Shown here: positions 54,987 through 58,529 of the stretch, piece after piece
Layout: each line of letters starts with the position of its first letter
Position numbering within the stretch: position 1 is the stretch's first letter
DNA from: an uncultured Phycisphaerales bacterium
GTDB lineage: Bacteria; Planctomycetota; Phycisphaerae; Sedimentisphaerales; Anaerobacaceae
Length of the DNA stretch: 64,000 bases
Direction of reading: 5' to 3'
Assembly: GCA_963718665.1 (NCBI GenBank)
Contig: OY970359.1
Coordinates: 2,112,001-2,176,000 of the forward strand
Program-made: the position numbers and the translations under genes
Notes under the pieces: model-generated
Told to the model about the DNA's origin: nothing
The model's database searches: none
Seen by the model: only the letters and a program-made list of their open reading frames with translations

Positions 54987-55216
54987 GAGGATTACAGGCA
55001 ATCTCTTTACTTTTCAGGCAGGGGGGTAAAAATCAAAAATAGGGTTAGGGAGCGCGTATGCGACGCGAAATTGATATTTTTTGGAAAAATTTTTATGCTT
55101 CTGTCCCATATTATCCGTGATGCCAAACAGGGTATCTGCGATTTCAAAAAATTTGCTTAGAGAAGGCGATTTTGTTCGGTTTTTGTTAGGGTTTTTCGAG
55201 GGTGCTGGCCGATAGA

Positions 55217-55280: not shown

Positions 55281-55298
55281 AAGAATGGAGCGTGTATT

Positions 55299-55784
55299 AT
55301 GATAGAGAGAATAGGGCCGGTATGCAGGTTCGGGCCTGGCGGCGATTATGAATCAGTGTGGCCGGGCGAATGGATGGAGCAGGCGACGCAGCCGAAAAAC
55401 GCGATTGGCAGATTGCTGGATGTTATTGCGGGTATGACGGATGTGATTCGAGGCGGCGATCGCTGCGTCGAGGTAACCGGCCCGATTGATATAGAGCAGG
55501 AGAACAAGTTGTATGAGTCAGACGAAAGAGGAACAGGCGTCCGGCGAGGGGCTTACGCCGCGGCAGGTTCAGTTGCTAAGCACAATCGCGGGGTTTCGGA
55601 CCAGCAGGGGTTATTTGCCGACGATTGGAGAGCTGGCGCAGCAGTTAAGCATAAGCCGAGCAACCGCATTCGGACACATCGAACAACTGCGAAGAAAAGG
55701 ACTTGTGTCGGGTCAGCAGTGTCCTTCGACGAAGGCCAGGGCACGCTCTTTGAACTTGACTTCAAAGGCGCGAAGACGGCTTAA
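55299..55784 (+). CDS. hypothetical 161-aa protein overlapping lexA out of frame, with two QxxLF motifs
   Basis: ATG 55299 after GGAG; open for 272 nt inside lexA; QQGLF and QGTLF. Confidence 0.55.
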   Translation: MIERIGPVCRFGPGGDYESVWPGEWMEQATQPKNAIGRLLDVIAGMTDVIRGGDRCVEVTGPIDIEQENKLYESDERGTGVRRGAYAAAGSVAKHNRGVSDQQGLFADDWRAGAAVKHKPSNRIRTHRTTAKKRTCVGSAVSFDEGQGTLFELDFKGAKTA

Positions 55785-56202
55785 ACAAATCCCTGATATC
55801 GAGCATCAAGCATCGAGCATCGAGCATCGAGACGAAGGGATTCCTCTTGTGGGCAGAGTCGCCGCCGGATTACCCGTTGAGGCGGTCGAGAACAAAGATT
55901 ACCTTTCCATCGAATCCTGCTTTGGCAATATAGGCGATATATTTGCCCTTGAGGTCAAAGGCGATAGTATGGTCGGCGAGAACATCCGCGAGGGGGATTA
56001 CGTTATCTGCAAACGAACAGCCACGGCCTCGAATGGCCAGTTAGTTGTCGCGATAGTCGATAACGAGGACGCGACCTTAAAAAGGTTTTACAGAGAAAAT
56101 AATCTTGTTCGTTTACAGCCGGCAAACGACGCATACGAGCCGATTTATTCAGACAATTGCCAAATCCAGGGTGTAGTCATCGGCCTTGTCCGAAAACTCT
56201 AA
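55513..56202 (+). CDS. lexA: SOS repressor LexA
   Basis: LTPRQ, PTIGEL, IPLVGRVAAG (Ala-Gly site), GDSM (Ser), ATLKRF (Lys); RBS AGGAG. Confidence 0.94.
   Translation: MSQTKEEQASGEGLTPRQVQLLSTIAGFRTSRGYLPTIGELAQQLSISRATAFGHIEQLRRKGLVSGQQCPSTKARARSLNLTSKARRRLKQIPDIEHQASSIEHRDEGIPLVGRVAAGLPVEAVENKDYLSIESCFGNIGDIFALEVKGDSMVGENIREGDYVICKRTATASNGQLVVAIVDNEDATLKRFYRENNLVRLQPANDAYEPIYSDNCQIQGVVIGLVRKL
55798..55832 (+). repeat. heptamer tandem repeat in the LexA interdomain linker
   Basis: ATCGAGC ATCAAGC ATCGAGC ATCGAGC ATCGAGA. Confidence 0.85.
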
Positions 56203-56423: not shown

Positions 56424-58529
56424 TTAGCCACACTCCGGCGATGTGCATTCCAGCCAGTGATTAGCTATCTCAGCGAAATCGAGCATAGTTACCTCGCCAT
56501 CTTTGTTGCTGTCTGCACCATCGCACCAGTTATTTATCGCCGCGCAGCCGGTCTCAAGCCAATTGTCTACGAATACGGCAATATCTAATAGGTCCACCCA
56601 GCGGCTGTCTTCTTTTAGGTCCCAAGCCGAATAAAACTCAAACGCACCCATATCCACTATTTTTTGCCCGTTACAATTTGCGGTCCCGATGCGAGGGTTG
56701 CCTGCCAAGTCGGTGGTAACGCCGGTGGGCACAGCCGAGTTGTCGCCAGCGTCGATACAAGGGCTGCCCGCCTGCAGACGAAGGTCCCCGTAGTAGTCGC
56801 TGGAGTACGGATCGGCGTACGGATCGGGGTTACATATGAAAAGTGGGTCGGCGTCAATATTGCCGGTTCCTCCTCCTCCTCCTACCCAGCCGCCCTCGAT
56901 GTTGCTGTAGCTGATGATGGAATAACTATAGTAATCGTCATAAACCGGGTCAGGAAAATTACCCCACAGGATGCAGTTTGTCACCACTGGCCAGCTCAAG
57001 TAGTTGTACATCCCGCCGCCGCCGTACCATGCCTGGTTACCGCTGAATGAGCAGTTGGTAACGGTCGGGCTGCTCTCGTAATTGTCCATCCCGCCGCCGT
57101 AGGTGGCCGAGTTGTTGGTGAAGGCGCAGTTGGTCACAATCGAATTGCTGTTGTATTCGTTGTCCATCCCGCCGCCGCTGATGGGTGCCCAGTTTCCGCT
57201 GAAAGCGCAACTGGTTACAATCGGGCTGCTGGACTCGTTGTATATCCCACCGCCGGAGTCATCTTCGGCCGAGTTGTCGGTGAATGTGCAGTTTGTCACG
57301 GTCGGGCTGCTGTCTTCGTTGCCCATCCCGCCGCCGGATTCGTAGGCCGAGTTGCTGTTGAAGATGCAGTTGGTCACCGTCGGGCTGCTGTATTCGTTGC
57401 CCATCCCGCCGCAGTAGGTGGCCGTGTTGCTGCTGAAGGTGCAGTTAGTCACTGTCGGGTTACTGTTGTCGTTGCCCATCCCGCCGCCGTAACTCTCGGA
57501 CTCACCGTATGCTGAATTTCCAATGAAAGCACAGTTGGCAACCGTCGGGCTGCTCCCGACGTTGCGCATCCCGCCGCCAAAGTCGTTGGCATTGCCGCCG
57601 GTAATCGTAAAGCCGTCCAGTGTAGCGCCGTTTACTCCTACAACCACGTAATAGGAATTGTCCGAGTTGTCGCCCTGTGTACCTATATCTCCCGAGAGAA
57701 TTGTCTGATTTGTGACCCAGTTACGCTGGTCGCGTGTTGTCTCAGTTCCGGCAAAGCCGCCGTAAATGGCCACACCCTGTTTCATAACAAATGATATCGT
57801 CCGGCCGGCGTTGCCACCTGTATAGGCAGTAGAATAAGTGGTGCTAACCCCGTCGTCTATGTATGCTTTTACAGCCGCATTCGATTTTATCTCGATAGAA
57901 AACGTTACTTGTTTCCCGGCCAAAGCGCTGAAGTTACCAATTTGTTGGTAGACCCGAGTTCCATAGCCGTAGCCTAGACTTTTATCTACTTTCATACTGT
58001 AGCTGCCACTGACTTTATTTGATGCCCCGGACTCTCTTGACACGCTTCCTCCACTATACAGACAAGTTGCGTACCAAAAATCGGCGGTATATCCGTCATA
58101 CTGCCAGCCTGGTCCTCCAAATGTGGTCCCGCTATTCCAATCCTCAAATCCGCCATTATTCACAGTTGACGCAATCGTAACAAGAGCATCATCGAGGTAT
58201 GAAACCGATGGAAGCCCAAGCTGATCAAATCCGACCTCCACTTTTGTAGCGCTTGCACTTATACTCTTAGTAACTATAAGATTTTCAAAGGCGTTAGTCG
58301 TAGTCGTGGGCTTGTATGTCCCCGCCGCAACCCAGATTTCATCGCCGCCGGCCGCCGCCAATAGGGCGGATTGCAGGTCCGTATAAGAGTCAGCCCAGAT
58401 TGTGCCATTGTTGGCACCGGTTGCATTAGAATTGACATAGATAACTGCAGCCCCCGCAAAATCTGATCCGCAAATGCTACCGACGAGAACAATTATTGAG
58501 AAAACGATAAATGGTCTTTTCGCTGACAT
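56424..58529 (-). CDS. secreted parallel beta-helix (pectin-lyase-like fold) protein with dockerin-like C-terminus
   Basis: Signal peptide; DEIWVAAGTYKP, YGGFAGTET, repeats SPTVTNCxFxxNxAxxGGGM, SPCIDAG..VDMGAFE. Confidence 0.85.
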   Translation of the reverse strand: MSAKRPFIVFSIIVLVGSICGSDFAGAAVIYVNSNATGANNGTIWADSYTDLQSALLAAAGGDEIWVAAGTYKPTTTTNAFENLIVTKSISASATKVEVGFDQLGLPSVSYLDDALVTIASTVNNGGFEDWNSGTTFGGPGWQYDGYTADFWYATCLYSGGSVSRESGASNKVSGSYSMKVDKSLGYGYGTRVYQQIGNFSALAGKQVTFSIEIKSNAAVKAYIDDGVSTTYSTAYTGGNAGRTISFVMKQGVAIYGGFAGTETTRDQRNWVTNQTILSGDIGTQGDNSDNSYYVVVGVNGATLDGFTITGGNANDFGGGMRNVGSSPTVANCAFIGNSAYGESESYGGGMGNDNSNPTVTNCTFSSNTATYCGGMGNEYSSPTVTNCIFNSNSAYESGGGMGNEDSSPTVTNCTFTDNSAEDDSGGGIYNESSSPIVTSCAFSGNWAPISGGGMDNEYNSNSIVTNCAFTNNSATYGGGMDNYESSPTVTNCSFSGNQAWYGGGGMYNYLSWPVVTNCILWGNFPDPVYDDYYSYSIISYSNIEGGWVGGGGGTGNIDADPLFICNPDPYADPYSSDYYGDLRLQAGSPCIDAGDNSAVPTGVTTDLAGNPRIGTANCNGQKIVDMGAFEFYSAWDLKEDSRWVDLLDIAVFVDNWLETGCAAINNWCDGADSNKDGEVTMLDFAEIANHWLECTSPECG
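56960..57580 (-). repeat. about 8 coding repeats of ~23 aa (beta-helix coils)
   Basis: Recurrent CATCCCGCCGCC and GTCGGGCTGCT on plus strand. Confidence 0.8.

Follow-up and report, generated by a model that had tools for sequence, protein, structure and literature searches.

A gene overlapping lexA in Phycisphaerae appears to encode a small protein with a candidate beta-clamp-binding motif

Introduction

SulA, YneA, ChiZ and SidA are SOS checkpoint proteins that are encoded beside lexA or under its control and that block division, each from a separate gene, and the gp7 protein of phage GIL01 and DdrR of Acinetobacter provide models for proteins of the LexA co-repressor or anti-repressor type. 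We know of no protein of the SulA, YneA, ChiZ or SidA type that is written inside lexA or that binds the clamp. Other long overlaps between bacterial genes include comS in srfAB and the Thermus rnpA/rpmH pair, and to our knowledge only a small number of long overlaps are well established, most of them young. An antisense overlapping pair is described in Pseudomonas (PMC8850804), and same-strand overlaps of more than 60 bp are reported to be selected against in bacteria (PMC3887535). The consensus for binding to the beta clamp, QL[S/D]LF, is tolerant of variation (PMC3716654) and clamp motifs are often C-terminal (PMC9690074); SocB of Caulobacter and RipA of Streptococcus pneumoniae are toxins that target the clamp (PMC12795458, PMC9690074), and SocB is turned over by ClpXP (PMC5422525).

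Here we describe an open reading frame (ORF) that runs into lexA from upstream in the genome of an uncultured Phycisphaerales bacterium. The window analyzed is a stretch of 64,000 nucleotides, and the positions given below are those of the window. There are several points of comparison with the systems above. First, the predicted product is like known clamp-motif proteins in having Q-x-x-L-F near the C-terminus within a disordered tail, and unlike them in having no enzyme or folded domain, in the glycine at position 2 of the motif, and in being encoded in a second frame of lexA. Second, it resembles SocB and RipA as a small protein predicted to act at the clamp pocket, possibly under ClpXP control, but it has no adjacent antitoxin or adaptor gene and no match to a toxin family in Pfam, NCBIfam or PHROG, and membership in the SocAB/RipAB family was rejected on these two grounds; moreover, SocB induces SOS, whereas the overlapping gene would lie downstream of SOS control. 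Third, like SulA, YneA, ChiZ and SidA the product is small and lineage-specific, and it would be unstable and damage-linked. Fourth, it shares with gp7 and DdrR a small size, a tie to a LexA-type repressor and a link to phages, but it has no similarity to anything in any library searched, and gp7 and DdrR are not overlapping. Finally, as in other long bacterial overlaps, two selected proteins would be drawn from one stretch of DNA; unlike those cases this overlap is on the same strand, about 270 nt long, class-wide, apparently old, and placed over a DNA-binding domain, and its motif visibly reshapes the LexA codons.

Although gene overlap as such is known, no known system matches this protein family or its motif, or the position of the gene inside lexA. 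A search of the openly readable literature, in its main texts, found no description of the overlapping ORF and no lexA study for the class Phycisphaerae. A class-wide overlap on a textbook regulator with a clean signature in the LexA codons should lend itself to the study of how two proteins constrain a single sequence. It further points toward a still undescribed part of the Phycisphaerae damage response, and it adds a new short motif common to host and phages.

Organization of the locus

The overlapping gene occupies 55299..55784 (+), starts with ATG, and is read in the -1 frame relative to lexA to give a predicted, mostly disordered protein of 161 aa. The lexA gene itself (55513..56202, +) encodes an intact product of 229 aa in which PF01726 (LexA_DNA_bind) and PF00717 (Peptidase_S24) both score over the cut-off. 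The ORF starts 214 nt 5′ of lexA and overlaps it by 272 nt, and its TAA stop falls at LexA Leu90/Lys91, ahead of the linker. Each gene has a Shine-Dalgarno-like site, GGAG at 55287..55290 (+), 8 nt 5′ of the ORF ATG, and AGGAG at 55498..55502 (+), which is 10 nt 5′ of the lexA ATG and lies within the overlapping gene; most relatives have purine-rich leaders before the ORF, and the lexA site is similar among them. A preliminary description of this DNA had proposed this layout, a separate ribosome binding site for each gene, an intact LexA and motifs QQGLF at 55602-55616 and QGTLF at 55737-55751 in the overlapping frame, and on these points it was found to be accurate.

Two further features of the surroundings may be recorded. 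The LexA linker contains a 7-bp tandem repeat, ATCGAGC (window 55798-55831), and its length differs among congeners, with more copies of ATCGAGC in one RNA contig. Beyond lexA and convergent on it is a gene (56424-58529, -) for a beta-helix protein of 701 aa whose end is weakly dockerin-like; as a neighbor it is not conserved.

Distribution of the open frame

Taken in one genome alone, the open frame departs little from expectation: it stays open with P=0.07 under synonymous resampling, and the -1 frame is open over the first 90 codons in 25 of 1091 long ORFs. Comparison was made across 99 lexA loci of the class, to which we take the order Sedimentisphaerales to belong. These are a sample and no census: 30 are best matches from a search among relatives, 29 are new best matches from a class search, and 40 were picked by hand from lower-scoring matches so as to spread over families. 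The first 30 (LexA identity 48-100%) have the frame open in 30/30 and the stop at the same lexA position in 30/30, with TAA, TAG and TGA all in use; across the class the stop position moves and the C-terminal LF stays. Overall the -1 frame is open in 88/99 loci, and the +1 frame, taken as a control, is not conserved open.

To avoid circularity, loci were sorted by the presence of an N-terminal motif encoded in the DNA outside lexA, using a pattern that was relaxed after inspection of the data. The motif lies upstream in 83/99 loci, always in the -1 frame, and in 83/83 of these the frame has no stop over the LexA DNA-binding domain, so that the absence of stops in relatives, proposed in the preliminary description as a check, is borne out. 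The 16 loci without the motif comprise 11 with a closed frame, three cut by contig ends, one open with QGTLF and one open without motifs. In a quick LexA tree these negatives form one clade (families f10/f18) plus 6/8 members of family f14 and are nested among the positives, which fits, short of proof, one gain near the class root followed by several losses. Within f14, L111 and L116 keep the open frame and QGSLF and are counted among the 83 on a divergent N-terminal motif only, one that the motif profile leaves unscored; L113, L114, L118, L137, L140 and L141 lack these features. The upstream DNA in several f14 loci resembles RNase P RNA by eye.

Outside the class the motif set was found at 0/30 lexA loci from other Planctomycetota classes. 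A genome search with the N-terminal motif profile gave matches in 18/24 class genomes and, beyond the class, in 2/377 other genomes, where they are weak (E 0.001-0.004) and unconvincing on reading. All seven paralogous lexA genes, found in lexA-umuD-umuC-like cassettes, are closed in the second frame and without the overlapping gene (7/7). Flanking genes vary from locus to locus, and lexA is the sole constant neighbor. From these comparisons the overlapping gene appears to be an ancient gene of the class Phycisphaerae that lies directly 5′ of lexA and extends into it by about 90 codons, and its distribution demonstrates, as far as the sampled loci go, a tie to the main lexA with loss in a few lineages.

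As separate observations, the second, distinct lexA genes (L184-L190) have umuD-like and Y-family polymerase genes as neighbors in seven relatives and are without an overlapping ORF, and two genomes of the order that are 99% complete (G025 and G036) have no match for either the main lexA or the N-terminal motif.

Features of the predicted protein

The AF2 model is a disordered chain (mean pLDDT 52.8) with a single helix. From the N-terminus come a hairpin and a variable linker, then LF(A/P)DD, and then a basic tract that leads to QG[ST]LF and a tail; protein length ranges from 114 to 427 aa, and the middle part varies freely in length. Residue counts below refer to the 53 loci that remain after dereplication at 75% LexA identity.

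The first of these parts, P[LIV]Cx[FL]GPGGD[YF]xxxWP (55317..55364, +), is outside lexA. It is modeled as a two-strand beta-hairpin (pLDDT 69-76), is repeated in some longer members, and is the new and most conserved part of the gene, which is only half overprinted on lexA. The second is an amphipathic helix at residues 35-51 (55401..55451, +), the sole helix of the AF2 model, and most order-level members have a similar segment. The third is the middle motif, QQGLF(ADD) (55602..55616, +), in which LF is conserved (47/53) and Q is variable (24/53). Fourth, a basic tract of 36-41 aa between the two LF motifs (55617..55736, +), with a net charge of +4 to +11 (median +8), lies over the LexA helix-turn-helix and is partly a by-product of stop avoidance. 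Fifth, QG[ST]LF (55737..55751, +), the candidate beta-clamp-binding motif, lies over the R-A-R-S-L of the LexA wing; its Q is present in 48/53 loci and missing from 5/53, and it is followed by 2-16 residues to the end of the protein (2-4 residues in 24/78 loci). The preliminary description had treated the two LF sites as a pair of QxxLF motifs, which stands for the C-terminal one; the middle one, with Q in fewer than half of the loci, is of the LF(A/P)DD type. Finally, the protein ends in KTA, with the stop at one site (55773..55784, +). The last residue is Ala in 24/31 long-tailed loci against 11.5 expected, and we take an Ala-ending tail of this kind to be a possible ClpXP degron.

A protein collection yielded 748 homologues, in 405 clusters at 50% identity, and each of the 120 listed entries is either unnamed or annotated as hypothetical and lacks a Pfam domain. 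Pfam gave no match over the cut-off and one sub-threshold match, NCBIfam matched 0/19 members, PHROGs gave no match and a protein atlas no usable one, and the solved structures gave one chance-level match to a xylanase (E 0.012). A search of 7997 longer candidates for forms fused to LexA or to another domain is a weak test; its sole match is an upstream extension without a Pfam domain, and no fused form occurs.

Possible clamp binding and alternative partners

The preliminary description had proposed that the protein interacts with the clamp. The C-terminal motif agrees with QL[S/D]LF in the Q, the S/T and the LF, and differs in having Gly in place of Leu at position 2, where the LexA Ala codon makes Leu impossible. 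Clamp-type motifs found locally are more hydrophobic (GQMRFF in DnaE; GQKLLF, GQQLTLF and GQLMLF in DinB). The QxxLF motif is in a segment that is disordered in the AF2 model and, across loci, often C-terminal. Complex prediction of residues 126-161 with the organism's own DnaN scored 0.34 against 0.01 for the best control, and in the model the contacts agree at 58% or more and the pLDDT of the partner is at least 38. The mark set for a complex was reached by 116/157 solved and 2/215 mismatched pairs, and it was reached at a score of 0.60 or below by 18/157 solved pairs and both of the mismatches; the DnaN score may stem from the predictor having learned clamp-peptide structures, as similar complexes are solved. 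Of the original proposal, a conserved C-terminal QxxLF is retained. For clamp binding the complex prediction gives weak support, and the glycine at position 2 and the loci without Q speak against it; we judge clamp binding by the overlapping protein to be slightly more likely than not.

The main alternative is that the protein is real and that its LF motifs bind a partner other than the clamp, with the overlap fixing its stoichiometry to LexA. Examples of such a partner are LexA, on which the protein would act as a co-repressor or anti-repressor like gp7 or DdrR, RecA and a protease adaptor. Such a partner would accord with the strict tie to the main lexA seen in the contrast with the seven paralogues and in G025 and G036, with the occurrence of the N-terminal motif on phages, once in a Mu-like early region, and with the imperfect fit of Gly2 and a variable Q to the clamp consensus. 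Against it, LexA codons bear a cost to preserve both the Q at -3 and an LF close to the terminus, which together have the spacing of a clamp motif; the weakly positive DnaN score and the failure of the N-terminal strand of the organism's own RecA to match the motif also speak against it. We regard a non-clamp partner as a possibility to be taken seriously, but we doubt it.

If the clamp is the partner, a role as a translesion switch or accessory factor of the ImuA/ImuB or UmuD type was considered and rejected on phyletic grounds. No match for a Y-family polymerase (IMS) was found in this genome, which is 94.6% complete, or in 16/23 congeners, and a translesion switch is therefore unlikely and a brake or tether more likely. 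Two other proteins of this genome have ends that are clamp-motif-like, namely NrdR, which ends QPKLFQ (G000:C1:1838251-1838739), and an 842-aa ORC-CDC6-like protein, which ends QSSLFDT (G000:C1:1000363-1002891).

Selection on both reading frames

Against a GC3-aware null, the frame is open in 53/53 dereplicated loci where 9.5 are expected, and the C-terminal LF is present in 52/53 where 0.53 is expected. A third-position T that would create a stop in the second frame occurs at 0/508 sites in the overlap, against 250/1341 in the LexA C-terminal domain and 14/116 in the 12 loci without the gene. The codons of lexA beneath QG[ST]LF are nearly invariant: Arg is CGC in 83/83 loci, Leu is TTG or TTA (TTR) in 83/83, and the Ser position is TCT in 78, TGT (Cys) in four and TCC in one. 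In the C-terminal halves of the same genes only 6% of Ser codons are TCT and only 13% of Leu codons are TTR, whereas codon choice at this site is ordinary in the 12 negative loci. The suppression of synonymous variation in lexA that had been anticipated in the preliminary description is seen as fixed codons (CGC, TCT/TGT and TTR), of which TCT and TTR are rare elsewhere in these genes. Where LexA does vary here it does so within the second code, as the four changes from Ser TCT to Cys TGT are silent in the overlapping frame. Likewise, LexA Tyr34, which lies under the middle LF, is TAT in 68, TAC in seven, TGT in five and TTT in three of the 83 loci, and the eight changes to Cys or Phe are silent in that frame.

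The part outside lexA is constrained in the manner of coding sequence. Codon positions 1, 2 and 3 of the N-terminal motif have identities of 0.73, 0.78 and 0.39 (50 loci), and the non-overlapping half has pN 0.117 and pS 0.434, a pN/pS of 0.27 (45 codons compared with 18 congeners). Being related, the loci do not give independent counts, yet the counts differ widely from those of the internal controls and of the sister lineages. Within that limit, these codon patterns demonstrate purifying selection on a second protein, protein-coding in kind and acting at both of its ends, and with it dual coding of lexA; the product is almost certainly a real protein.

The same patterns bear on the reading, also put forward in the preliminary description, that the overlap serves mainly in translational control of LexA synthesis, or in a frameshift that joins the two frames, with the peptide secondary. 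The ORF does span the ribosome site and start of lexA, its stop is fixed in position within the order, and the middle of the protein is free in length, all as translational control would allow. Yet the amino acids are selected both in the motif outside the overlap and at an LF about 80 codons into lexA, and coupling or frameshift fusion alone is therefore insufficient. In addition, the stop moves across the class while the LF stays, the N-terminal motif is found apart from lexA in phages, and the longer candidates include no fused form, weak as that test is. As the main function of the overlap, translational control seems unlikely. That the frame is an artefact, open through codon bias and with CGC-TCT-TTG fixed as a DNA or RNA element in lexA, gains something from high-GC members in which the chance of an open frame reaches 0.83 per locus, from the kinship of the loci and from an R-rich tract that is partly due to C-ending codons, but it is largely refuted, and very improbable, given the rarity of TCT and TTG/TTA elsewhere in the same genes, variation that obeys the second-frame code (TCT/TGT, TTG/TTA and three different stops), ordinary codons in sister lineages without the gene, and third-position freedom in the upstream motif.

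Phage copies of the hairpin motif

The hairpin motif, as PLCxFGPGGD[YF], also occurs in small unrelated ORFs on seven viral contigs (L220-L225 and L228), at the C-terminus in five of the seven, and in a gene that, in a Mu-like prophage of G088, immediately precedes the transposase (L216:1219-1689). As a DNA pattern it matched six contigs; the per-site chance is 3.6e-12 under uniform composition, and about 0.4 matches would be expected by chance if the collection holds some 1e11 sites, a size that is assumed. The downstream aromatic-Pro, which is absent from the pattern, is present in 4/7 of the viral copies. Mimicry of a RecA strand by the motif was considered and rejected, as the N-terminal strand of the organism's own RecA has no match; no other ORF of its own scores above 5.1 bits. 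We infer that the hairpin can move between proteins as an element that binds a host protein, and the overlapping gene probably arose when a motif-bearing upstream gene was read through into lexA.

Regulation and proposed mechanism

A direct repeat, TGTTCGG-N4-TGTTAGG (GTTC-N7-GTT[AC] type), at 55173..55190 (+) is a candidate LexA operator. It resembles the alphaproteobacterial LexA box, reported as GTTC-N7-GTTC (PMC8565304). The repeat is exact in 27/27 full-length loci among L001-L029, and a copy with at most one mismatch is found in 78/83 loci with the ORF and in 10/16 others, counts that cover 1.5 kb and may include chance matches. As the repeat is 5′ of the overlapping ORF, both genes would share it, in keeping with the co-regulation that had been suggested for them. 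This genome has a single perfect copy, at the lexA locus. There is no copy at recA in this genome (four mismatches) and no exact copy at recA in five complete genomes, and across those five the repeat is not enriched, with 16 matches against 41 for a reversed control; three of the 16 are at lexA and one precedes a gene that is ImuA-like by eye. LexA control of the ORF and lexA through the repeat is therefore plausible but unproven, and the repeat may serve another regulator.

The model that we favor is of a short-lived, disordered adaptor or brake that binds the clamp and is co-regulated with LexA. The lexA transcript would begin with the overlapping gene as its first cistron, LexA would repress this gene by way of the upstream repeat, and cleavage of LexA would raise the level of the product. 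The C-terminal QG[ST]LF would insert into the hydrophobic pocket of DnaN, the beta clamp. DNA contact may come from the adjacent basic tract, and the N-terminal hairpin would bind a second host protein that is also a phage target. So placed, the protein could compete with Pol III for clamps after damage or tether a partner to them, and it would be cleared by way of its Ala-ending tail. Taken as a whole this model could well be right, but it is offered tentatively. Put more specifically, as a damage-triggered replication brake inside lexA with two heads, a clamp motif and a phage-copied hairpin, and under co-constraint since the origin of the class, it is more tentative still.

Transcription data are few: two RNA runs had a share of 0.08, and RNA contigs of relatives from two studies, about 90% alike, extend over 55285-55457 and parts of lexA, may be DNA, and carry neither strand nor level.

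Several observations were made in passing. Copies of the repeat elsewhere (L233, L234, L236, L242 and L244) precede genes that by eye are Rnf- or NuoE-like redox, CHAD-like and ImuA-like. In most order-level loci the stretch that separates the repeat from the divergent gap gene contains a conserved GTCCCATATT element (55103-55112), possibly a promoter element. Just 5′ of dnaN, on the same strand, is a gene for a regulator that is WYL-like, judging from a motif recognized by eye (G000:C1:1388221-1389249, L147), a possible LexA-independent damage regulator.
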